Origin: an uncultured virus (IMG/VR IMGVR_UViG_3300008111_000024)
Taxonomy: Duplodnaviria; Heunggongvirae; Uroviricota; Caudoviricetes
Length of the DNA: 64,000 nt
Virus record (IMG/VR): IMGVR_UViG_3300008111_000024
Reading direction: 5' to 3' (one strand)
A program made the translations under genes and the position numbers. The notes under the pieces were generated by a model. It was given only the letters and a program-made list of their open reading frames with translations, ran no database searches and was not told the origin of the DNA. Position 1 is the first letter of the stretch. Every line of letters begins with the position of its first letter. Positions 1-47,840 of the stretch are shown one piece after another.

Positions 1-34
1 TATAATCCTTTGTTCTTTCTTAGTCAAATTTTTG

Positions 35-120
35 CGGAAGATGTTGGGCTCGAACCAACGCGACTTTTACATCCTACCTGTTTAGCAAACAGGCCCCTTC
101 ACCAACTTGGGTAATCTTCC
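35..120 (-). tRNA. tRNA-Ser(GCU)
   Basis: Cloverleaf GGAAGAT/ATCTTCC, anticodon arm CCTGT-TTGCTAA-ACAGG, long variable arm, TTCGA T-loop. Confidence 0.95.
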
Positions 121-125
121 AATAG

Positions 126-197
126 TAGTCCCTGAGGGATTCGAACCCCCTCTAAAACATCCGTAGTGTTTCGTGCTCTCCGTTACACCAAGGGACT
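126..197 (-). tRNA. tRNA-Arg(ACG)
   Basis: Anticodon arm AAACA-CTACGGA-TGTTT, T-loop TTCGAAT. Confidence 0.93.
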
Positions 198-222
198 ATA
201 CTTCCGTTAATCGTGGGGTCTT

Positions 223-310
223 TGGCGGAGGAAGTAGGATTCGAACCTACGGTACCTTTCGGTACGCTAGTTTTCAAGACTAGTGCAATCGACCACTCTG
301 CCATTCCTCC
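223..310 (-). tRNA. tRNA-Ser(UGA), CCA encoded
   Basis: Anticodon arm CTAGT-CTTGAAA-ACTAG, long variable arm. Confidence 0.95.
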
Positions 311-314
311 TTTT

Positions 315-390
315 TGGGTGAATAACGGGAATCGAACCCGTGACACCTTGGACCACAACCAAGTACTCTTCCAACTGAGCTATATCCACC
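315..390 (-). tRNA. tRNA-His(GUG)
   Basis: Anticodon arm CTTGG-TTGTGGT-CCAAG, G-1 and C73. Confidence 0.95.
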
Positions 391-394
391 ATAT

Positions 395-604
395 TAGCGT
401 TCAATCATTTCTGACGGTCCCCAATACCGAATTTCAGCGGCAACTCACCAATTTCGTGAGGGGTTAGAACTTGTGTGTTAACTTACTCCTGTTACTGGTA
501 CACTAACCAACCGACTTAGATTCAAGTAATCGGCTCAGGTCCCTATGGTTGTAACACCACTTCTCATCATTCGGGAGCAAACTAGTCGTATACTACTCGA
601 CTCG
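395..604 (-). ncRNA. Unassigned structured RNA (~200 nt) within tRNA operon 1
   Basis: GC-richer than coding DNA; hairpins AGTCG/CGACT, CCGATT/AGTCGG, GGTTAG/CTAACC, CTCAC/GTGAG; no credible ORF. Confidence 0.55.
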
Positions 605-606
605 TG

Positions 607-740
607 TAGTCAAGGTCGGACTCGAACCGAATACCGTTCAAGACGGATTAGACAACCTTACGACTCCATAGAACCCACAAGTGTCTGGGACTATTGGTCT
701 TGGGGACTCGGGTACCATCCCTCATTACGCCCACTCGACT
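607..740 (-). ncRNA. tRNA-like RNA (134 nt) with expanded central domain
   Basis: Acceptor-like stem AGTCGAG/CTTGACT, T-arm TCGG-TTCGAGT-CCGA, variable-arm hairpin CCGT/ACGG, no canonical anticodon loop. Confidence 0.6.
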
Positions 741-814
741 ATTACCCCACTTCACCAGGTTAACGGACTGGCTGCCATATGGGAGTGGGGGTTTCCTGTT
801 ATTTCAGGACTCCG

Positions 815-887
815 TGGAACGGGGCGGAATCGAACCGCCGACACCTTGCTCTTCAGGCAAGTGCTCTACCAACTGAGCTACCGTTCC
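815..887 (-). tRNA. tRNA-Phe(GAA)
   Basis: Anticodon arm CTTGC-CTGAAGA-GCAAG. Confidence 0.95.
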
Positions 888-892
888 AATTA

Positions 893-1115
893 TGATAATG
901 TTGGAGTACCCATCTCGCTCCAATCTTAACTGCTTAATCGTAGTTTTACGAGGCCTCGGCAGAGGGTGCTGAATTCCGATTCCACTCTGGATTGTCGACA
1001 TCCGTTGAATGGGGAAAACCATTATCAGTATTTTAAAATCACTTTCGCCCCCTGTATAGACATACGTCGGATGCTTAAGGTCAGCCTTAACTGTTAAGGG
1101 AGCCACCCGTGATTT
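893..1115 (-). ncRNA. Two adjacent structured RNA modules
   Basis: Closing stems TGATAATG/CATTATCA (about 893-1027) and AAATCAC/GTGATTT (about 1036-1115) with internal hairpins such as TTGGAG/CTCCAA. Confidence 0.55.
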
Positions 1116-1126
1116 GTTTTTTTTTT

Positions 1127-1207
1127 TCAAAGAACTCTCTCGTCAGGGGGAGTAGGCCACCAACCTACCAACTACCTACTCCCCCGTCATTTGTGTATAC
1201 AAAGATA
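1127..1207 (-). promoter_or_regulatory. Internal host-type promoter (TATCTTTG), GC hairpin and boxA-like site
   Basis: TATCTTTG at 1207-1200; hairpin GGGGGAGTAGG/CCTACTCCCCC; AGTTCTTTGA at 1136-1127. Confidence 0.65.
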
Positions 1208-1242
1208 CAACTTTTTTTCTAATCCACAATATTTTTTTTTAA

Positions 1243-1302
1243 ACTTCCGAGTTTGGACGTGTTTTACTTCCGAGTTTGGACGTGTTTTACTACCGAGTTT
1301 GG
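1243..1302. repeat. 23-bp tandem repeat, about 2.6 copies
   Basis: ACTTCCGAGTTTGGACGTGTTTT x2 followed by ACTACCGAGTTTGG. Confidence 0.9.
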
Positions 1303-1310
1303 CATTTTTG

Positions 1311-1385
1311 TAGTCCCTGTAGGATTCGAACCTACGACCCCTTCCGTGTAAAAGAAGTGCTCTAAACCAACTGAGCTAAGGAACT
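1311..1385 (-). tRNA. tRNA-Val(UAC)
   Basis: Anticodon arm CTTCT-TTTACAC-GGAAG. Confidence 0.93.
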
Positions 1386-1391
1386 ATTAAG

Positions 1392-1461
1392 TTGCGTGTT
1401 CGGGGTTCGAACCCGATTAACCTTCCTTATGAGAGAAAGTTCTTTTCCTCTAAGCCACGCA
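1392..1461 (-). tRNA. tRNA-Met(CAU), atypical short D-arm
   Basis: Loop CTCATAA, T-arm TCGGG-TTCGAAC-CCCGA, acceptor TGCGTG/CACGCA; only 70 nt. Confidence 0.75.
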
Positions 1462-1469
1462 ATTTGTTG

Positions 1470-1540
1470 TTGTCCCTGAAGGATTCGAACCTCCACTAGG
1501 TGGACCAAAACCACCTGTCCTGCCATTAGACGAAAGGACA
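1470..1540 (-). tRNA. tRNA-Gln(UUG)
   Basis: Anticodon arm GGTGG-TTTTGGT-CCACC. Confidence 0.95.
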
Positions 1541-1548
1541 ATTTAAAG

Positions 1549-1629
1549 TGGGAGTGGAGGGATTCGAACCCCCAATGTCGTAAGACCACTGATTTACAGT
1601 CAGCTAAGCAACCGTTGCTCAACACTCCC
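1549..1629 (-). tRNA. tRNA-Tyr(GUA)
   Basis: Anticodon arm GCTGA-CTGTAAA-TCAGT, long variable arm. Confidence 0.93.
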
Positions 1630-1632
1630 AAT

Positions 1633-1766
1633 TTAGGAAAACAGAAGATGGTTCAGTGGACATCTGTTTTTACGATTAGCATTACTCGGGTGAATACCTG
1701 CAAACTCCGATTGTACTAGTCGGTATTCACTCTCGAACTATCAGTACAATCATTCCCTAATCAACC
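1633..1766 (-). ncRNA. Unassigned structured RNA (~130 nt), possible pseudoknot
   Basis: Closing stem TTAGGGAA/TTTCCTAA; crossing helices GATTGTACT/AGTACAATC and GTGAATACC/GGTATTCAC. Confidence 0.6.
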
Positions 1767-1767
1767 T

Positions 1768-2307
1768 TTATATTGTTATTAAATTATCGTGTATTTCACA
1801 ATGACAATTAGAACAAACTAACATACATTTATCAACCTCATTTTTTAATTTATCAAACGATAAACTTTTACCCGATATTGAAAAATCTTTTTCTAACGGA
1901 TTTTTATGATGAAATTGTAACGCTCTATTACATTTATCATAACCACAAATTTCACATTTACCCCCTTTATATTCAATCAGTTTTATTTTAGTTCTTTTCC
2001 TCCATAAAATAACAGATTCGGAAGATGTTACTGTTTTAACTTTTTGTTTTGTCTTAACATATTTTTGTACGGTTTCAAAAGACCTCCCTGTTATTTTAGC
2101 AACTTTTTTAAGTGAACCAAATTCATCATACATTTTTTGAAATTCAACAATTTCGGCCTCAGTTACCTTTTGATTATTATCCCCTAAACCATTTAATGTA
2201 CAATGGTATGATATTGTTGACATTGCACACCCAATAATGTTTTTAATTTCTTTATAAGTTTTACCTTCTTTCCTTAAGATGATTATTTTTTCCGAATATC
2301 TTTCCAT
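1768..2307 (-). CDS. Free-standing HNH homing endonuclease with N-terminal HTH repeats
   Basis: GGKCEICGY...LQFHH...KCMLVCSNCHCEIH; sits between RNA genes; upstream TATTTAT motif. Confidence 0.85.
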   Translation of the reverse strand: MERYSEKIIILRKEGKTYKEIKNIIGCAMSTISYHCTLNGLGDNNQKVTEAEIVEFQKMYDEFGSLKKVAKITGRSFETVQKYVKTKQKVKTVTSSESVILWRKRTKIKLIEYKGGKCEICGYDKCNRALQFHHKNPLEKDFSISGKSLSFDKLKNEVDKCMLVCSNCHCEIHDNLITI

Positions 2308-2356
2308 AATATTAACATTTTATATTAATAAATATTAGAAAGTTCGTAAATGTTCG

Positions 2357-2440
2357 CTGACACGGTAGGATTCGAACCTACGATGTGGTTTCCCAGTCAG
2401 GTTAACAGCCTGATGCTCTCGGCCTCTGAGCGACGTGTCA
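2357..2440 (-). tRNA. tRNA-Asn(GUU) with long variable arm
   Basis: Anticodon arm TCAGG-CTGTTAA-CCTGA; extra hairpin TGG-GAAA-CCA; 84 nt. Confidence 0.9.
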
Positions 2441-2444
2441 ATTT

Positions 2445-2519
2445 TGGCACGGGTGGAGAATTACGATATCCCGACACCTGGTTTTGGAGACCAGTGCTCT
2501 GCCCCTGAGCTACACCCGT
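2445..2519 (-). tRNA. tRNA-Trp(CCA), atypical T-loop, CCA encoded
   Basis: Anticodon arm CTGGT-CTCCAAA-ACCAG; T-loop ATCGTAA. Confidence 0.88.
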
Positions 2520-2525
2520 GTGTGT

Positions 2526-2747
2526 TTATTTCCATTGGGTTTTACGATTGTATTTCCAAGTTTTATACTCTCGTACCTTTTGCCAAGGAATTCTTTTATT
2601 TGGATTCTTATATCCCCTCTTCCAATAAGGATAAAAGTTGTATCCCTCATCCCAATACAATGGATACCATTCATTGAGGGAAATTAAGTGGTAATCCCTA
2701 CCACATTCTGCGTTTTTGAGCTTGGCTCTGTTTCTGTGTTTTGACAT
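2526..2747 (-). CDS. Small basic, Trp/Tyr-rich hypothetical protein
   Basis: 73-aa ORF co-oriented between tRNA-Cys and tRNA-Trp. Confidence 0.65.
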   Translation of the reverse strand: MSKHRNRAKLKNAECGRDYHLISLNEWYPLYWDEGYNFYPYWKRGYKNPNKRIPWQKVREYKTWKYNRKTQWK

Positions 2748-2805
2748 ATTCTATTGAGTTTACTCAACAGAAGTCATTTTCTTTTTTCATAATATTAATT
2801 TTTAG

Positions 2806-2879
2806 AGGTCAGAGTCGGATTCGAACCGACGAATACTTGTTTTGCAGACAAGCCCCTTAAACCACTTGGGTATCTGACC
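2806..2879 (-). tRNA. tRNA-Cys(GCA)
   Basis: Anticodon arm CTTGT-CTGCAAA-ACAAG, U73. Confidence 0.95.
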
Positions 2880-2883
2880 GTAG

Positions 2884-2958
2884 TGTCCCCGACAGGACTC
2901 GAACCTGTGACTCCCTCATTAAAAGTGAGGTGCTCTAAACCAACTGAGCTACGAAGAC
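2884..2958 (-). tRNA. tRNA-Lys(UUU)
   Basis: Anticodon arm CCTCA-CTTTTAA-TGAGG. Confidence 0.95.
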
Positions 2959-2964
2959 ATTAAG

Positions 2965-3038
2965 TTGTCACAGATGGGCTCGAACCATCGACCTTTCGCG
3001 TATCAGGCGAACGCTCTAACCAACTGAGCTATGTGACA
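2965..3038 (-). tRNA. tRNA-Ile(GAU)
   Basis: Anticodon arm TTCGC-CTGATAC-GCGAA. Confidence 0.95.
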
Positions 3039-3044
3039 ATGTAG

Positions 3045-3116
3045 TCGGGGTAGCAGGGGTCGAACCTGCCGCCTCTTGGTCCCAAACCAAGCGTCTCTCC
3101 CCAAGACTATACCCCG
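3045..3116 (-). tRNA. tRNA-Pro(UGG)
   Basis: Anticodon arm CTTGG-TTTGGGA-CCAAG, C1-G72. Confidence 0.92.
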
Positions 3117-3136
3117 ATTATATACTTACCAATATG

Positions 3137-3146
3137 TCAAAGAACA
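3137..3146 (-). promoter_or_regulatory. boxA-like antitermination site
   Basis: TGTTCTTTGA(CATATTGG), recurring ahead of the other tRNA units. Confidence 0.6.
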
Positions 3147-3148
3147 CT

Positions 3149-3190
3149 AAAAACAAAAAACCCCCGAACTTATGATGGTTCGAGGGTTTT
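3149..3190 (-). terminator. Attenuator terminator of tRNA operon 1
   Basis: AAAACCCTCGAAC-catcataa-GTTCGGGGGTTTT followed by U-tract; 5' arm TCGAACCA is complementary to TGGTTCGA in the leader ORF. Confidence 0.85.
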
Positions 3191-3216
3191 GATGTTTGTT
3201 ATTTATTAACTTAATC

Positions 3217-3333
3217 TTATCCTAAATCTGTGTTATTAACAACAGTCGAACCAATAGATGACATACGCGGATACCAGCAATTACTAAATTGCGATTTCAC
3301 GTTAATGACCATATGTTGTTTATTAGTTCTCAT
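3217..3333 (-). CDS. Leader peptide 1 (38 aa, MRTNKQHMVINVKSQFSNCWYPRMSSIGSTVVNNTDLG)
   Basis: Between promoter and terminator; codons match operon 1 anticodons; not in ORF track. Confidence 0.85.
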   Translation of the reverse strand: MRTNKQHMVINVKSQFSNCWYPRMSSIGSTVVNNTDLG

Positions 3334-3369
3334 TGTTGTATTTTTTAATTGTTTTTCTTATAACTATTA

Positions 3370-3400
3370 CAAAGGTACAAAAAGTTTCGTAATTGTCAAA
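3370..3400 (-). promoter_or_regulatory. Bacteroidota-type primary sigma promoter for leader 1 / operon 1
   Basis: TTTG-N19-TACCTTTG. Confidence 0.85.
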
Positions 3401-7864: not shown

Positions 7865-7938
7865 AATTGTTTTTTATTTTAATGATAATAAAAAACCTCG
7901 TTAAATAAATTATGGAAATGAATTTGTTTTAAGATTTG

Positions 7939-8012
7939 TAGTGACGATGGGACTTGAACCCATAACCTTGACCGTATAAGAGTCCTGCGCTCACCGATTG
8001 CGCCACGTCACT
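7939..8012 (-). tRNA. tRNA-Ile(UAU)
   Basis: Acceptor AGTGACG/CGTCACT, loop CTTATAC, T-loop TTCAAGT. Confidence 0.85.
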
Positions 8013-8017
8013 ATATG

Positions 8018-8091
8018 TGGTCCCTGTAGGGCTCGAACCTACGACCCCCTGATTATGAGTCAGATGCTCTAACCGACTGAGCTAAGGGACC
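8018..8091 (-). tRNA. tRNA with CAU anticodon, probably Ile2 (lysidine type)
   Basis: TCTGA-CTCATAA-TCAGG; acceptor GGTCCCT with C4-G69/C5-G68 resembling Ile2 tRNAs. Confidence 0.8.
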
Positions 8092-8100
8092 GAAAAAAAA

Positions 8101-8201
8101 GTAGTCAGAGGTTGGTGGGAATATGACCTAGGGGCTAGCACCCGTTCCCCAATAATCGGTTGGACACCGATTGCCCAAATTAGGTACACCAACTTGACTA
8201 C
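8101..8201. ncRNA. Unassigned ~100-nt RNA with long bulged terminal stem
   Basis: GTAGTCA..GTTGGTG / CACCAAC..TGACTAC; internal hairpins AATCGGT/ACCGATT and CCTA/TAGG. Confidence 0.55.
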
Positions 8202-8208
8202 AGATACC

Positions 8209-8379
8209 TTAGAACAGTATTAAATCTCCGTGGCAGTTATCCCACTCATCAATCCAATTTAAACTTGGTCCGATATTAATATTATCAGTATCAAATTTCT
8301 CAACTTGAATACCTTGTTCTTCGGTCTTAACTTCTTCAGTTATATTTTTATTTTCGTTTGGGTCAAATACATAGTACAT
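8209..8379 (-). CDS. Small acidic hypothetical protein (56 aa)
   Basis: Hand-translated MYYVFDPNENK...WDNCHGDLILF. Confidence 0.6.
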   Translation of the reverse strand: MYYVFDPNENKNITEEVKTEEQGIQVEKFDTDNINIGPSLNWIDEWDNCHGDLILF

Positions 8380-8400
8380 AATTTAAGAGTGGGTTTTTTG

Positions 8401-8474
8401 AGCCTCCAGTCGGAATCGAACCAACGACCTACTGATTACAAATCAGTCGCTCTGACCTGCTGAGCTATGGAGGC
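8401..8474 (-). tRNA. tRNA-Thr(UGU)
   Basis: Anticodon arm ACTGA-TTTGTAA-TCAGT. Confidence 0.95.
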
Positions 8475-8487
8475 AATTACCATATAA

Positions 8488-8772
8488 TTATTTAACTTTT
8501 TTATATATGTACGTTATGGTATCACCAATTTTGTAAATATCTGACCTGTCTGTCGAAAATTTTTCACCACAGTCGGTTTTGTAGTAATATTTGGGTGTTA
8601 ATTCATTAATTGCAACAGGTTGTTTAACCCAAGCACTATCAATTACACACTTAACCACCTTATCACCAGGTTCAATTCGGTTACGATTTTCACATCCTGA
8701 TAGTAAGAATGCAACAAAACTAATAAGTACAAACCAAAGGATTGCTAATAAGATAGGAGTATTTTTTTTCAT
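8488..8772 (-). CDS. Putative lipoprotein
   Basis: Hydrophobic signal with LSGC lipobox; TAAATTTG-N4-ATG. Confidence 0.8.
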   Translation of the reverse strand: MKKNTPILLAILWFVLISFVAFLLSGCENRNRIEPGDKVVKCVIDSAWVKQPVAINELTPKYYYKTDCGEKFSTDRSDIYKIGDTITYIYKKVK

Positions 8773-8795
8773 AGTGCAAATTTATGTCAGTTTTT

Positions 8796-9044
8796 CTAAT
8801 ATACCAAATATTTCATTGAATTTTTCTTAATCCATTCAGGGTCGTATTTAAATTCTTTCCAATTATCAAAATCTTTCAAATCTTCCAAGACTTCAATTGG
8901 AACTAAAGTAAAACCTTCAGGTGCAATACCATCAAATTTATGGTAAGCCGCGTATTCAATTTTTTCTTTAATCATTTCACAAAATAAATCATCCTTAATG
9001 AACTCATTATGTTCTTGTTCTAAAATTTCGTCTTTACTATTCAT
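8796..9044 (-). CDS. Hypothetical protein (start revised to MNSKDE)
   Basis: Upstream part of the track ORF overlaps tRNA-Arg. Confidence 0.7.
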   Translation of the reverse strand: MNSKDEILEQEHNEFIKDDLFCEMIKEKIEYAAYHKFDGIAPEGFTLVPIEVLEDLKDFDNWKEFKYDPEWIKKNSMKYLVY

Positions 9045-9058
9045 AATTAAAAGATAAG

Positions 9059-9132
9059 TGACCTTGGAAGGATTCGAACCTTCGACCCACAACTTAGAAG
9101 GTTGTTGCTCTATCCATCTGAGCTACAAGGCC
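9059..9132 (-). tRNA. tRNA-Arg(UCU)
   Basis: Anticodon arm ACAAC-CTTCTAA-GTTGT. Confidence 0.95.
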
Positions 9133-9138
9133 ATATGT

Positions 9139-9315
9139 TTAAAGTTTTTTAACAATATATTTATGACCTGAATCTGAATTGGTTTCAAAAACGATTCTCA
9201 TTTTATCCGCTTCTTCCATAGTATCAAACTCCCATATTTCGTTTTGAGAATTTAATATGATTACAGGTAACTCAATACCATTTAAATTTTTGATGATTTT
9301 TACAATGACCCACAT
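9139..9315 (-). CDS. Small hypothetical protein (58 aa, MWVIVKIIKNLNG...)
   Basis: Hand-translated; upstream TATCTTTG. Confidence 0.65.
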   Translation of the reverse strand: MWVIVKIIKNLNGIELPVIILNSQNEIWEFDTMEEADKMRIVFETNSDSGHKYIVKKL

Positions 9316-9363
9316 AAAGTATTCAATTTCTTACAACAAAGATACTAATTAATTTTGAATTAA

Positions 9364-9522
9364 TCAAACAACCCCAAGTAAAATTAGTGATTTATGAATT
9401 AACAATAACATCAATATAAAAATCCCAAAAATAATCACATAACCAAAAACTTTATTATTAGTGGTTACTTGTTTCTCTGAACGACCTTGCCATTCATCAA
9501 AATTCCATTCATCATTTTCCAT
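9364..9522 (-). CDS. Small single-pass membrane protein (52 aa, MENDEWNFDEWQGRSEKQ...)
   Basis: Hand-translated; C-terminal hydrophobic helix. Confidence 0.65.
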   Translation of the reverse strand: MENDEWNFDEWQGRSEKQVTTNNKVFGYVIIFGIFILMLLLIHKSLILLGVV

Positions 9523-9551
9523 ATTAATAAGTATGTACTAATTTATTTGTG

Positions 9552-9623
9552 CGGTCTATGAGGGAATCGAACCCTCCTCACTACCGTGACAGGGTAGCAT
9601 CCTAGCCGATGAACGAATAGACC
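9552..9623 (-). tRNA. tRNA-Asp(GUC)
   Basis: Anticodon arm CTACC-CTGTCAC-GGTAG, G73. Confidence 0.95.
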
Positions 9624-9631
9624 AAAGTTTG

Positions 9632-9704
9632 CGGTCCCGACGGGATTCGAACCCGTACCTCGCACCGTGACAGGGTGGAATTGTAACCATTCAACCACGG
9701 GACC
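9632..9704 (-). tRNA. tRNA-Asp(GUC), divergent second copy
   Basis: CACC-CTGTCAC-GGTG, G73. Confidence 0.92.
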
Positions 9705-9709
9705 TTTTG

Positions 9710-9781
9710 AGCGAATAGACAGAATCGAACTGTCGTCTCCAACTTGGAAGGATGGAGTAATAACCACTATACGATATTCGC
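9710..9781 (-). tRNA. tRNA-Gly(UCC)
   Basis: Loop CTTCCAA, GCG acceptor, U73. Confidence 0.92.
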
Positions 9782-9790
9782 TTATTATTG

Positions 9791-9862
9791 AGCGGTAAGG
9801 CAGAATCGAACTGCCATCTGAGCCTTGGCAAGGCCCTGTAATAACCGTTATACGATTACCGC
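9791..9862 (-). tRNA. tRNA-Gly(GCC)
   Basis: Loop TTGCCAA, GCG acceptor, U73. Confidence 0.93.
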
Positions 9863-9946
9863 ATTTAGATGAGTCGTGGACTTGTGTACCACTTTTGTCC
9901 CCCTTTAGCTAGCCACTAACCTGAAGGTGTGGGGACCCCCATTTTA

Positions 9947-10210
9947 TTACGAATATTTTTTCGCGATATTTGCAATTGTTTCTTCCTCTTCCTTACTCAT
10001 TCTATGGTAAGAATTTGCTAAAACATCACAATAATCTCTATGAGTTTCCTCAATTAACGAATATTGTGGTGGTTTACCTATTCCTTTACTATTTTTTGTT
10101 AAGTAACCTCTATCGATTAAATCATCAATTAAATCATTAATCTCACTTTTGGAACATTCATCAATAAATTCAAAAACGTCCACATCAACATAAGTGCTAA
10201 ATTCTGGCAT
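9947..10210 (-). CDS. Hypothetical protein
   Basis: 87-aa ORF with A-rich leader, inside operon 2. Confidence 0.75.
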   Translation of the reverse strand: MPEFSTYVDVDVFEFIDECSKSEINDLIDDLIDRGYLTKNSKGIGKPPQYSLIEETHRDYCDVLANSYHRMSKEEEETIANIAKKYS

Positions 10211-10232
10211 AATAATTTTTTTTTAAGTTTTG

Positions 10233-10304
10233 TAGTCCGTGCGGGAATCGAACCCGCCTTTTATCCGTGAAAGGGATATGTCCTAACCGATAGACGAACG
10301 GACC
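10233..10304 (-). tRNA. tRNA-Glu(UUC)
   Basis: Anticodon arm TATCC-CTTTCAC-GGATA. Confidence 0.95.
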
Positions 10305-10321: not shown

Positions 10322-10352
10322 CAAAGATACAACCAATATTTCAAAGAACAAA
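10322..10352 (-). promoter_or_regulatory. Host-type promoter overlapping a boxA-like site
   Basis: TTTG-N19-TATCTTTG; TGTTCTTTGA(AATATTGG) at 10350-10341. Confidence 0.65.
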
Positions 10353-10366
10353 ATTTTTAATACTAT

Positions 10367-10401
10367 AAAAACAAAAAACCCATCTCTTTTGGAGATGGGT
10401 T
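10367..10401 (-). terminator. Attenuator terminator of tRNA operon 2
   Basis: AACCCATCTC-caaaa-GAGATGGGTT plus U-tract; CCATCTCCA is complementary to TGGAGATGG at the end of the leader ORF. Confidence 0.88.
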
Positions 10402-10425
10402 CAGTGAATTCATAGTATAGGAATA

Positions 10426-10500
10426 TCACACCATCTCCATTGGAGTAGTCGCTTCAGTTCTATCTGTCCCGCCTATTAGTATGATATGTGTAGTTTTCAT
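10426..10500 (-). CDS. Leader peptide 2 (24 aa, MKTTHIILIGGTDRTEATTPMEMV)
   Basis: Codons ATA CTA ATA GGC GGG ACA GAT AGA ACT GAA match operon 2 anticodons; not in ORF track. Confidence 0.85.
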   Translation of the reverse strand: MKTTHIILIGGTDRTEATTPMEMV

Positions 10501-14452: not shown

Positions 14453-14476
14453 TATTTATAAATAAAGAAAATCGTG

Positions 14477-14584
14477 ATGAATATGAAATCATTAAATATG
14501 GGTCTTTTAGTACAGGATAATATTACGTCGGCACTGTTATGTGTTCGAGGAGTGACCTTACGCGATTTAGATAAACAAAACTAA
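14477..14584 (+). CDS. Leader peptide 3 (35 aa, Leu-rich, MNMKSLNMGLLVQDNITSALLCVRGVTLRDLDKQN)
   Basis: After TATTTAT motif at 14453; 7 Leu codons; contains antiterminator GTGACCTT; not in ORF track. Confidence 0.75.
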   Translation: MNMKSLNMGLLVQDNITSALLCVRGVTLRDLDKQN

Positions 14585-14613
14585 AATTGAACAAAAAACT
14601 AAAACGTATAAAG

Positions 14614-14647
14614 AAAGGTCACAAGAAATTGTGACCTTTTTTGTTTT
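14614..14647 (+). terminator. Attenuator terminator upstream of the HNH / tRNA-Leu / clpP unit
   Basis: AAAGGTCACAA-gaaa-TTGTGACCTTT plus U-tract; AAGGTCAC is complementary to 14552-14559. Confidence 0.85.
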
Positions 14648-14678
14648 AATGAAAAAAAATTATTAAATTTGCCAAGAT

Positions 14679-15182
14679 ATGGAAAGAGTATTAGTGTTAA
14701 ATGCAGATTATACCCCGTTAAACGTGACATCCTCACAAAAAGGATTTAAACTAGTTTTCAAGGGTAAAGCGGAAATCGTTAAGAGTTCCGAAAGTCCTAT
14801 TATTGCAGGATACCAAAACTTTGTACGTCCATTAATTATACGTTTGTTTAAATACGTAAAATTTAGGGTTAGGAATATTCGGGTTAACAGACATAGAATA
14901 TATCGGAGAGATGGTGGAGAGTGTGTTTATTGTGGTTCAACTAAACAGTTAACCTTAGACCACGTTATTCCTAAATCTAAAGGAGGTTCAAACGAATGGA
15001 CTAACCTTGTAACTTGTTGTCATAAATGTAACCTACATAAAGCTGATAGAACACCTCAAGAGGCAGGTATGACTCTACGTAAAAAACCGTATGAACCATC
15101 ATTGTTTATTGACGTGGTAAATAATTCTTTGGAAAGGGTATGGGAAGATTACAAAAATTCATTCGGGGTGTTGACAGTTTAA
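14679..15182 (+). CDS. HNH endonuclease (McrA-like family)
   Basis: VLVLNADYTPL; RDGGECVYCG...TLDHVIPKSKGG...NLVTCCHKCN. Confidence 0.9.
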   Translation: MERVLVLNADYTPLNVTSSQKGFKLVFKGKAEIVKSSESPIIAGYQNFVRPLIIRLFKYVKFRVRNIRVNRHRIYRRDGGECVYCGSTKQLTLDHVIPKSKGGSNEWTNLVTCCHKCNLHKADRTPQEAGMTLRKKPYEPSLFIDVVNNSLERVWEDYKNSFGVLTV

Positions 15183-15259
15183 AAAATACGCCGTACATTT
15201 GTACTGTTCTTTGATATACGAAACGCTCGGGTGGTGGAATAGGTAGACACGTCAGACTT

Positions 15260-15923
15260 AATTCTAAATGTCTGTATATTTATTAGTATGAGAATACAAA
15301 TAAGTGAAACAGAATTTAAAGAAGTGGTTTTTAGTTCTATGACTATGGCACAAGCTTCAGCTAAACTTGGATTACACTTCAATACTTTTAAACGTATTGC
15401 GGTTAAACTAGGTGTTTATAATCCGAATCAATCGGGTAAAGGTGTAAAAAAGGATATGTCATCCGTTTCAATACCTTTAGACGAAATATTAGAAGGTAAA
15501 CATCCAAGTTACCAGACTTTTAAACTTAAGAATAGAATGTTAAGAGAAAATATTCTCAATAATGTTTGTTCTGAATGTAAAATAAATGAGTGGAATGGTA
15601 AACCAATTAGTCTTGAACTTGACCATATAGATGGTGTACGTACTAATCATAAGTTGAATAACTTAAGATTATTATGTCCAAACTGTCATTCTCAGACAGA
15701 CACCTATAGAAGTAAAAACAGGATTTGAGTGCTTGAGAAGAAATTCTCAATGTAGAACTCCGTAAATTCGGTGAACCCTTTCAAATGGGAATACCGAGCC
15801 AAGCCTCGAAAGAGGAAGGTGTAGAGACTAGACACGGAGAACCTAAGTCTGAAAAGATAAGGTTAAGGTATAGTCCAGACCACAAACAACAATTTGGTTG
15901 GTAGTGAAAACTATAGTGGTAAG
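15260..15923 (+). mobile_element. Group I intron (664 nt) with homing endonuclease ORF
   Basis: U before the 5' splice site, terminal G; core elements AAATTCGGTGAA, AATACCGAGC, GTAGAGACTA, AAGGTATAGTCC; P3 CTCCGT/ACGGAG. Confidence 0.92.
15288..15728 (+). CDS. Intron-encoded HNH endonuclease
   Basis: CSECK...LELDHIDG..N..NNLRLLCPNCHSQT; TATTTAT-N4-ATG. Confidence 0.9.
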   Translation: MRIQISETEFKEVVFSSMTMAQASAKLGLHFNTFKRIAVKLGVYNPNQSGKGVKKDMSSVSIPLDEILEGKHPSYQTFKLKNRMLRENILNNVCSECKINEWNGKPISLELDHIDGVRTNHKLNNLRLLCPNCHSQTDTYRSKNRI

Positions 15924-15978
15924 AAAATCTGATGGACCGTAAGGTCCGTGCGGGTTCGATTCCCGCCCCGAGTACTAA

Positions 15979-16180
15979 GAGTAAGAGATACTCTGAAAGT
16001 TTGGTAACGTTCTTTCAAGATGTTATAGTTGTCGCCTTCCACGACTTTAGAGAGGGGGTCGTCGGAGCCTGGATGTAACAAATCCACCGAGTATGTTTGA
16101 CGTTTTAAGCGGTAAGACGCGTTGGGTTTTTCAATAGGAAAAACTGTGAATATCTACTCACCGTAATCTCAGGTGGGGCC
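15979..16180 (+). ncRNA. Unassigned structured RNA (~200 nt) between the two tRNA-Leu genes
   Basis: Hairpins GAGTA/TACTC, ACGAC/GTCGT, TGGAT/ATCCA, CGTTTTA/TAAGACG, GTTTTTC/GAAAAAC. Confidence 0.6.
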
Positions 16181-16184
16181 AAAT

Positions 16185-16264
16185 ATCAGAGTGGTGGAAT
16201 TGGTAGACACGTATGCCTTAGGAGCATATGCTACGGCGTGAGGGTTCGAGTCCCTCCTCTGATA
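16185..16264 (+). tRNA. tRNA-Leu(UAG)
   Basis: Anticodon arm TATGC-CTTAGGA-GCATA. Confidence 0.95.
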
Positions 16265-16284
16265 CTAAATTTTAAAATTTAATT

Positions 16285-47603: not shown

Positions 47604-47649
47604 ACTTCAAAGATACGAAAGTTATTTTAAACTGTCAAATCTTTTTTTG

Positions 47650-47723
47650 TGGTAGGGACTGGAATCGAACCAATGGCACACCGCTCTTCGAACGGATGCT
47701 CTACCTTCTGAGCTACCACTACC
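47650..47723 (-). tRNA. Degenerate tRNA-Phe(GAA)-like gene
   Basis: D- and T-arms intact; loop TCGAAGA (C33); acceptor mismatch; own TATATTTG promoter and boxA-like site. Confidence 0.6.
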
Positions 47724-47840
47724 ATTTAAGTTTTAAAGAACTATGGTACAAATATACGATTATTTATTAACTCTGTCAAATAAAAAAAGGAAGATTTCTC
47801 TTCCTTTTTAATTTTTTTAATTTTTTTAATATTTTAAATT

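Follow-up and report, generated by a model that had tools for sequence, protein, structure and literature searches.

Whether a phage transcribes its transfer RNA (tRNA) genes constitutively or on demand is the question raised by a locus near the start of a 64,000-nucleotide (nt) stretch of DNA from an uncultured virus of the Caudoviricetes (IMG/VR record IMGVR_UViG_3300008111_000024), here called the window, by which the whole stretch is meant. On the minus strand of this DNA, a short leader open reading frame (ORF), an intrinsic terminator, and a boxA-like motif precede an array of 15 tRNA genes, and an earlier inspection of the letters alone (the sequence-only reading) had proposed an attenuator there whose leader contains a run of 24 codons covering all 15 downstream tRNAs. 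The analysis described here supports the attenuator through codon statistics, the predicted alternative helices, the window's two sister modules, and 42 unique leaders that track their own tRNA sets, and we consider it likely that the leader works as a ribosome-mediated attenuator: a multivalent sensor of how fast decoding by the array's own tRNAs proceeds, with a boxA-type site behind it.

Codon content of leader 1 and the downstream tRNA array

Leader ORF 1 (3217-3333; all features of module 1 are on the minus strand) was identified by ORF calling and by its in-frame homologues in relatives, and consists of 38 codons and a stop (MRTNKQHMVINVKSQFSNCWYPRMSSIGSTVVNNTDLG). When it was translated again, codons 4-27 (3253-3324) were identical to the codons listed in the sequence-only reading, and every one of them can be read by the tRNAs of array 1 (34-3116), which encodes Pro-UGG, Ile-GAU, Lys-UUU, Cys, Trp, Asn, Tyr, Gln-UUG, a weak CAU tRNA, Val-UAC, Phe, His, Ser-UGA, Arg-ACG, and Ser-GCU. 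Thirteen of these 15 named tRNAs were recovered by ARAGORN between 3116 and 34, and tRNA-Trp was recovered by Rfam (2448-2519, 47 bits). The assignment that stands least firmly is Met, a CAU tRNA at 1392-1461: Rfam gives it 25.7 bits where 29 are needed for the gathering score, and ARAGORN does not call it. In the related contig L121, the tRNA-Met at the corresponding position scores 67 bits and differs in sequence from the CAU tRNA of the window.

Each of the 15 tRNAs has a cognate codon in the run, and the correspondence extends to the isoacceptor level, with AGT for Ser-GCU, TCN for Ser-UGA, and CGT for Arg-ACG. The 24 codons encode 14 amino acids and include no codon for Gly, Asp, Glu, Thr, Leu, or Ala. 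As had been pointed out before, GTC and TCT require four-way reading by U34; GTG, TCG, and TCA also occur in the run. The match is confined to the run: codons 2-3 and 28-38, which include AGA, ACT, GGT, ACA, GAT, TTA, and GGA, agree with the array only to an ordinary degree, and these unmatched ends of the ORF are the segments that form the pairing regions described below.

The sequence-only reading had suggested computing the probability of such a codon set from codon usage. Using the codon usage of the 46 window ORFs of at least 150 amino acids, 2,000,000 ORFs of 37 codons were simulated; a pure run of at least 24 codons appeared in 22 of them, coverage of 15 tRNAs anywhere in the ORF in 364, and a pure run covering 15 tRNAs in none. 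The combined analytic and simulated chance is ~7e-9 per ORF, obtained as the product of purity (1.6e-6), conditional coverage (3.2e-4), and 14 possible placements. In a six-frame scan of 127,852 segments of 24 codons, 15/15 coverage was found only in 8 segments overlapping leader ORF 1, and a segment that was also pure only at 3324. The observation is thus confirmed as real and far beyond chance.

In the close relatives L120 and L121 (L262 is the same contig as L121), leader 1 is kept in frame and reads MRTNKQHMSIINVVKQFSNCWYPRMAFIGSVVDETN up to its stop; synonymous changes of TGC to TGT and of CAA to CAG as well as rearranged residues are present, and 15/15 tRNAs are still covered. The arrays of relatives end with Ser-GCU, and the operon therefore probably does not continue past base 1 of the window, as had been considered possible.

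A predicted RNA switch in module 1

The segments TGGTTCGA (3253-3246) and TCGAACCA (3183-3176), previously described as complementary, were located where they had been reported and do pair. The minimum-free-energy fold of 3360-3145 (-51.9 kcal/mol, z = -5.2 against dinucleotide shuffles) places this pairing in a larger arrangement. Region 1 (GAACUAAUA, 3321-3329, codons 2-4), the anti-antiterminator strand, is predicted to pair as 3329-3321 with UAUUGGUUC (3256-3248, codons 26-29) of region 2, forming a 1:2 helix that encloses the codon run. Region 2 (3246-3256), delimited by folds and segment energies, also contains UGGUUCGA (3253-3246), which is complementary to UCGAACCA in the 5' arm of the terminator (3183-3176) and is predicted to form with it the 2:3 antiterminator. 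After a 55-nt AU-rich spacer behind the ORF follows the intrinsic terminator (3148-3190), called with a 13-base-pair (bp) stem at 3190-3157 (6 GC), -18.6 kcal/mol, and a T-run extending to 3148. The segment energies of module 1 are -22.0 (1:2), -13.7 (2:3), and -18.6 kcal/mol (3:4).

The stop codon (3219-3217) lies 27 nt beyond the antiterminator, as had been noted, and it had been concluded from this distance that control must be kinetic. The 1:2 helix, which had been overlooked, would supply the terminating state by default, so that a ribosome parked at the stop would be unnecessary; given the predicted helix, the distance to the stop should not matter. Every one of the 15 tRNAs is sampled by a codon at or before codon 23, and codons 24-27 repeat tRNAs already sampled earlier in the run. 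A ribosome covers ~12-15 nt ahead of its P site, and with such a footprint a ribosome on codons up to 23 would leave region 2 free.

No Rfam leader or T-box family reached its gathering score in the window. The only leader-type match was Thr_leader (RF00506) at 3152-3239, with 27 bits against a threshold of 55 and E = 0.19, and is probably due to the hairpin of the terminator.

Two further modules in the same window

ARAGORN found 24 tRNAs in the window, to which Rfam alone adds tRNA-Trp and the weak CAU tRNA. They are grouped into three arrays, the sole exception being a second tRNA-Phe (47649-47723), and a leader module precedes each array. tRNAs for all of the amino acids absent from the run of leader 1 except Ala lie in the other two operons.

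Module 2 is also on the minus strand. Its array (7938-10304, ARAGORN) encodes Glu, Gly-GCC, Gly-UCC, two Asp, Arg-UCU, Thr-UGU, Met, and Ile-UAU, and leader ORF 2 (10426-10500, MKTTHIILIGGTDRTEATTPMEMV and stop) contains codons for 8/8 tRNA kinds of this array; for combined coverage and purity on the array 2 set it is the top six-frame segment of the whole sequence. Terminator 2 (10366-10402, identified by terminator calling and folds) has the 5' arm CCATCTCC, whose partner is GGAGAUGG in the last codons of leader ORF 2; GGAGAUGG repeats the 3' arm of the terminator and can thus pair with CCAUCUCC of the 5' arm. Here too a 1:2 helix, of 11 bp, is predicted, and the segment energies are -17.3 (1:2), -17.3 (2:3), and -16.4 kcal/mol (3:4). 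Alignment of modules 1 and 2 gave nothing useful outside the boxA-like motif. The sole codon of leader 2 without a phage tRNA is GCG. Operon 2 of the relatives keeps a tRNA-Ala(UGC), and this retention accounts for the orphan codon. Comparison of window positions 9863-10231 with positions 1049-1772 of L121 showed that the window lacks the tRNA-Ala(UGC) and the two CAU tRNAs that relatives have after a small ORF in array 2.

Module 3 (14474-14649, plus strand) consists of a Leu-rich leader ORF (14474-14584), a region 2 (GTGACCTT, 14552-14559), and a terminator (14614-14639) with a T-run; ORF calling and folds were used to define it. Its region 2 (GUGACCUU, 14552-14559) is complementary to the 5' arm of the terminator at 14614-14639. 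The leader has 7 Leu among the 32 codons after its third ATG (p = 0.01); many six-frame segments are equally Leu-rich, so that the codon content is not outstanding alone, and the case for accepting the leader lies in the terminator and region 2 that accompany it and in conservation among relatives. Downstream, on the same strand, ARAGORN and Rfam identified, in the interval 15206-16265, an intron-split tRNA-Leu(UAA) (~15225-15975, group I intron) and a tRNA-Leu(UAG) (16185-16265), preceded by a boxA-like GTTCTTTGA (15206-15214). The intron matches Rfam at 15704-15898 with 55.6 bits and carries an ORF of 146 amino acids (15288-15728).

In each of the three modules three mutually exclusive helices are predicted, and the z values of the whole leaders are -5.2, -4.6, and -3.1. 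When the codons of the three leaders were tabulated against the three tRNA sets (3x3 table), the association was significant (chi-square p = 6.8e-5): the genetic code is divided among the three leaders of this phage as it is among its three arrays.

A family of leaders that track their own tRNA operons

To collect relatives, viral contigs were searched with the pattern "GGTTTTT, 0-30 nt, 18-mer", where the 18-mer is the boxA-like motif, which gave 90 loci; after removal of duplicates, 59 modules with a terminator hairpin remained, together with 4 further loci in which no hairpin was detectable. A first pattern (T-run, gap, 9-mer) had returned 119 mostly unrelated loci, which were not used. An ATG-initiated ORF of 14-60 codons ending 10-45 nt before the terminator is present in 54/59 modules. 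Among the other five, one is cut by the end of the locus, one has an ATG ORF that was dropped by the distance rule, two have an ORF starting with GTG, and L264 lacks an ORF, so that a leader ORF is found in 57/58 complete modules. L264 has the terminator and the motif, and no leader ORF is recognisable there in any frame.

The correspondence between codons and tRNAs was examined in the 46 modules with at least 3 downstream tRNAs, which represent 42 unique leaders. On average, a fraction of 0.644 of the leader codons is readable by the leader's own operon, against 0.452 when operons are swapped, and 0/100,000 permutations reach the observed value. A cognate codon is present in the leader for 398/424 tRNAs of its operon, for 99/204 tRNAs located elsewhere in the locus, and for 211/380 tRNAs not seen in the locus (stratified odds ratio 16.6). 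The contrast between operon, elsewhere, and unseen is sharpest for rare codons, namely those for Trp (23/25, 0/5, and 1/12), Cys (23/25, 1/8, and 3/9), Gln (26/28, 1/9, and 1/5), and Pro (15/15, 3/15, and 4/12). It holds for isoacceptors, as seen for Arg-ACG (16/18, 2/7, and 6/17) and for Arg-UCU (9/9 in the operon and 6/13 elsewhere). With one representative for each of 15 clusters (less than 50% peptide identity between them), the counts are 164/186 against 172/339, an odds ratio of 7.2.

As in leader 1, the match is concentrated between regions 1 and 2, where 574/775 core codons agree with the operon, against 180/373 codons in the flanks. The divergent leader of L263 (MKKWYTYRTIMTAFNKGVEDCGVLDIRI and stop) covers 15/15 tRNA species of its own array, and 19/20 of its core codons match. 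Closely similar leaders follow differences between their operons: those containing CWYP have a tRNA-Pro in the operon in 6/7 testable cases (the window, L262, L300, L311, L313, and L324, the exception being L282), and those containing CWYE have tRNA-Glu first and the tRNA-Pro in another operon, in 5 loci (L238, L246, L250, L295, and L301).

Conservation of the alternative helices

The pairing that would couple the leader to the terminator is conserved. In an alignment of 18 type-2 sequences (alignment A2), 96.5% of the antiterminator cells pair, against 43-65% when the strands are slid, and 4 of the 18 sequences carry a double change from UA to GC that affects both sides. The terminator helix is 97.8% paired in the same sequences, and the 1:2 helix 87.6%, against 18-57% when slid, though not above shuffles and without a compensatory change. 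In close relatives of the window, a change in region 2 is matched by one in the terminator arm, the pair UCGA/UCGA having become UCGG/CCGA.

Without an alignment, the best duplex between a leader and the 5' arm of its terminator has a median z of -2.7. In every leader it falls in the 3'-terminal part of the reading frame, and its end is -7 to +16 nt from the stop codon except in a spurious ORF in L248 (38 nt) and in leader 1 of the window (20 nt). Across seven terminator classes that share no 7-mer, the mean energy of a leader's duplex with its own terminator is -14.8 kcal/mol, against -8.4 kcal/mol with swapped terminators; the observed mean is reached by 16/100,000 permutations, and the own terminator ranks first for 6/7 leaders.

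The boxA-like motif and promoters

In module 1, the 32 nt between the end of the T-run (3148) and the start of tRNA-Pro (3116) are filled by the boxA-like motif GTTCTTTGACATATTGGT (3128-3145), which ends 11 nt before tRNA-Pro, and no room is left for a promoter. Its core, GTTCTTTGA, occurs 4 times in the window against 1.0 expected, each copy standing just upstream of tRNAs, and upward of 115 viral contigs contain the 18-mer, either behind a promoter, immediately behind a terminator, or in the gap between neighbouring tRNAs. Copies between tRNAs (L122-L236) are often ~10 nt after one tRNA and 10-20 nt before the next. Four contigs that had been suspected to be ribosomal RNA (rRNA) operons contained tRNAs only.

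Extended to GTTCTTTGA(A/C)A, the motif fits 10/11 positions of GYTCTTTAANA, the gamma-proteobacterial boxA consensus as given in PMC5725501. In the one Bacteroidia rRNA operon inspected, GATCTTTGAAA precedes the 16S gene by ~200 nt and GGTCTTTGACA stands in the spacer; this operon comes from the single genome with a 16S gene among four Bacteroidota metagenome-assembled genomes (MAGs) that match the pattern. At other occurrences of the motif in those four genomes, no Rfam family was found alongside in the 7 loci scanned of 10 returned. These resemblances suggest that the motif is a boxA-type Nus-factor site. A role as a promoter element or processing site is disfavoured, as no -7 box is adjacent in class-c loci or between tRNAs. 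Because boxA acts as RNA and the motif fills the space of a promoter, array 1 would have to be transcribed from upstream of the terminator and then conditionally read through.

A candidate for the upstream start is P1 (3370-3400), a promoter-like site of the Bacteroidota type (TTTG-N19-TACCTTTG) found by pattern matching ~37 nt 5' of the leader ATG and separated from it by an A-rich 5' leader. This promoter pattern has 13 matches in the window against 4.6 expected; a scan with the sigma-70 consensus gave 54 matches against 44.9 expected and thus no enrichment. Across the family, the 100 nt that precede the leader ATG include a TAnnTTTG box in 28/52 members, against 7/52 control segments. The 20 nt before the leader ATGs contain 56% A against a background of 34%, and the second codon is AAA in 41/53 leaders. 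Translation initiation in Bacteroidota is poor in Shine-Dalgarno sequences, which the A-rich stretch before the leader ATG suits.

Two further promoter-like sites were identified, that of module 2 by the same pattern. In module 2, the boxA-like motif (10332-10349) lies within the spacer of a promoter-like site, P2 (TTTG-N19-TATCTTTG, 10322-10352, minus strand), behind terminator 2. Inside array 1, before its last five tRNAs, the segment 1127-1207 combines a hairpin with a promoter-like -7 box (TATCTTTG, 1200-1207) and with another boxA-like GTTCTTTGA (1127-1135), and the last five tRNAs may receive extra transcriptional input from this site. A direct repeat of 23 nt in ~2.7 copies (1243-1302, minus strand) stands just 5' of this -7 box, and the hairpin downstream of it is G+C-rich (~1145-1186) and followed by the boxA-like copy. 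Behind the "A" variant of the motif (GTTCTTTGAAATATTGGT), TGTAnnTTTGTA regularly comes next, which places this variant in the spacer of a consensus promoter, as in the window (10322-10352, minus strand), L137, L157, L171, L200, L203, and others; the "C" variant shows no such regularity.

Proposed mechanism

The observed anatomy, statistics, conservation, and covariation suggest the following sequence of events, of which we infer the translation of the leader, the sign of its response, the binding of Nus factors, and the physiological signal (tRNA abundance or tRNA charging). Transcription would start from P1 (~3400-3370), and the 38-codon leader would be translated while it is being made. If no ribosome is present, or a fast ribosome has already left, regions 1 and 2 would pair, the terminator (3190-3157) would form, and the polymerase would stop at the T-run. 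If a ribosome lingers on any of codons 4-23, regions 1 and 2 would be kept apart and the 2:3 antiterminator would form. A polymerase that reads through would then reach the boxA-like site, which probably loads host Nus factors that protect the long untranslated transcript, and would continue into tRNA-Pro and the rest of array 1. Since every tRNA of the array is represented in the run by one or more codons, the run would act as an OR gate, in which slow decoding by any one tRNA species of the array turns the array on and sufficient supply keeps it off. The phage would thus probably transcribe its tRNA genes mainly when ribosomes decode the matching codons slowly.

Several points weigh against this attenuator. 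The comparative counts come from related sequences and are not independent events; ARAGORN misses some tRNAs, among them the Trp of the window, and the limits of operons were set by rule of thumb, wherever a gap of 2 kb or another module intervened. The match of some type-2 leaders to their operons is poor (L261 and L314, 0.26-0.30). In the RNA, the 1:2 helix has no compensatory change and is not above shuffles, and only 24/54 leader-terminator duplexes reach p <= 0.01 against mononucleotide shuffles. In leader 1, the stop lies 27 nt past region 2, which is atypical for the family, and a ribosome stalled on codons 24-27 would, at this short distance, mask region 2. P2, a well-formed consensus promoter after terminator 2, offers array 2 a bypass, and array 1 has its internal promoter-like site at ~1200, so that leader 1 cannot solely control all 15 tRNAs. 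Finally, host tRNAs read the same codons, and a shortage of an amino acid is indistinguishable from a shortage of a tRNA.

Alternative explanations

The last of these points belongs to the alternative that survives best, although it is unlikely: the switch would be the same and its signal another, the leader reporting general translation status or amino-acid supply and the array being turned on in starved or stressed cells. A stalled ribosome cannot tell a missing tRNA from an uncharged one, and the leaders are codon-diverse, leader 1 sampling 14 amino acids in 24 codons. A general sensor, however, need not avoid the codons of tRNAs that belong to other operons, yet these are represented in 99/204 cases against 398/424 for the leader's own operon, and the three leaders of one phage divide the code between them.

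An improbable alternative is that the ORF is an independent mini-gene or the tail of an upstream unit with an ordinary terminator, that the tRNAs are transcribed from promoters of their own, and that the codon match is a by-product. The consensus promoter that follows the terminator in module 2 and in many relatives, the internal promoter-like site of array 1, and the conservation of the leader peptide among close relatives would all fit. What this account does not accommodate is that the T-run and tRNA-Pro of module 1 are too close together for a promoter, and that room is likewise lacking in many contigs in which the motif begins 4 nt after the T-run; nor does it predict that the complementarity of region 2 follows the sequence of the terminator and that the codon content of the leader follows the downstream tRNA set at the isoacceptor level.

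We regard as very improbable that the terminator is leaky and constitutive, with a fixed low read-through, and that the ORF merely shields the RNA from Rho until the boxA-like site has been made. PMC5725501 does link boxA-type sites with suppressed Rho-dependent termination, and the 1:2 helix shows no covariation, but a leaky terminator leaves unexplained both the correspondence between codons and tRNAs and the conserved position, at the ORF's 3' end, of a segment complementary to the terminator. An origin by chance or from the composition of an AT-rich genome was tested and rejected: the 24-codon segment was chosen after the fact and the flanking codons of leader 1 do not match, yet 0/2,000,000 simulated ORFs equal it, it is the unique extreme of 127,852 real six-frame segments, and the second and third modules and 42 leaders elsewhere show the same codon match.

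Genomic context and occurrence

The window is AT-rich (32% G+C) and phage-like, and contains 25 N. Among 18 long ORFs compared with PHROGs, only a ClpP-type head-maturation protease, a dehydrogenase, and HNH endonucleases were matched, most ORFs remaining without a match. An HNH-endonuclease ORF (14679-15182, plus strand) lies between attenuator 3 and the tRNA-Leu genes and is kept at the same place in L307, L242, and L254; because of its retention in these three relatives, attenuator 3 may gate a protein gene too. The tRNAs of array 1 are interspersed with ORFs and structured stretches; G+C-rich, apparently structured stretches at 390-813, 888-1126, and 1630-1770 (minus strand) had no Rfam match at E <= 1, and the start of the stretch at 888-1126 resembles the one that follows promoter and motif before tRNA-Glu in contigs L173 and L230. 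The lone second tRNA-Phe (47649-47723, minus strand) is flanked by two consensus promoter matches and has no leader (region 47608-47780).

The closest relatives of the window are uncultured viral contigs, with a neighbouring protein 85% identical, and the 90 loci found with one exact pattern show that the family is common in uncultured phages of the Bacteroidota type. Neither leader module matched the GenBank phages of INPHARED at E <= 0.01, and the upstream gene region matched there only two 735-kb records of uncultured phages (66% identity over 13% of the query), no cultured relative being found. Among 185,579 species genomes, the terminator-plus-motif pattern was found in 4 contigs, all of them Bacteroidota MAGs and none beside tRNAs. 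Ten lake metatranscriptome runs contain 5-14% of the sampled window words, and among the four runs compared with the window (X1-X4), one 225-nt contig of run X4 spans 3125-3337 and thereby leader, terminator, and motif; such contigs show no RNA ends, strand, or level, and DNA carry-over is possible.

Relation to known systems and implications

Leader-peptide attenuators are known from amino-acid operons, such as trpL, hisL, leuL, thrL, pheL, and the multivalent ilv leaders of enterobacteria; Bacteroid-trp would be a Bacteroidota precedent, and a literature search on it gave nothing of use. The phage modules share with them the short ORF with regulatory codons, the exclusive 1:2, 2:3, and 3:4 helices (predicted in the phage modules), the terminator before the structural genes, and the induction on slow reading that is predicted here. 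They differ in that tRNAs and not enzymes are controlled; in that the runs for one or a few amino acids are replaced by 1-3 codons per tRNA for up to 15 species, matched to isoacceptors; and in that they are phage-borne, with Bacteroidota-type promoters and a boxA-like site after the terminator. In Escherichia coli, the pheST attenuator (pheM leader) senses charged tRNA and controls a synthetase through one amino acid, Phe; it is likewise a case of leader-peptide attenuation of a gene of the translation apparatus, whereas the target of the phage modules is tRNA genes. T-box riboswitches bind uncharged tRNA directly and need no ORF; they too couple tRNA status to terminator read-through, whereas the phage leader has an ORF. 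As in rRNA operons with boxA, described in PMC5725501, the motif stands in the transcribed leader and between the genes of stable-RNA operons; unlike there, it is found in phage tRNA arrays and directly behind an attenuator, and its similarity to boxA suggests that it would serve as a NusB/NusE site. No description of leader-peptide attenuation of tRNA genes was found in full-text literature searches.

More generally, we lean towards the view that phage tRNA arrays of this kind are made on demand, the multivalent leader of each array sensing decoding speed in the manner of an OR gate and a boxA-type site rendering read-through processive. If so, the phage would measure the decoding of exactly those codons that its array serves and make tRNA in response, and leader-peptide attenuation would be extended beyond amino-acid supply to the supply of tRNAs, a 15-way OR gate taking the place of a single amino acid. 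From the sequence of the leader alone one could also read which tRNAs form one regulatory unit. The role of phage tRNAs is a long-standing question, in which the abstract of PMC10264068 contrasts codon compensation with escape from tRNA-targeting defences. If our reading is true, depletion or cleavage of particular tRNAs by host defences would trigger the sensor too, and the array would be an inducible counter-measure rather than a constitutive supplement.

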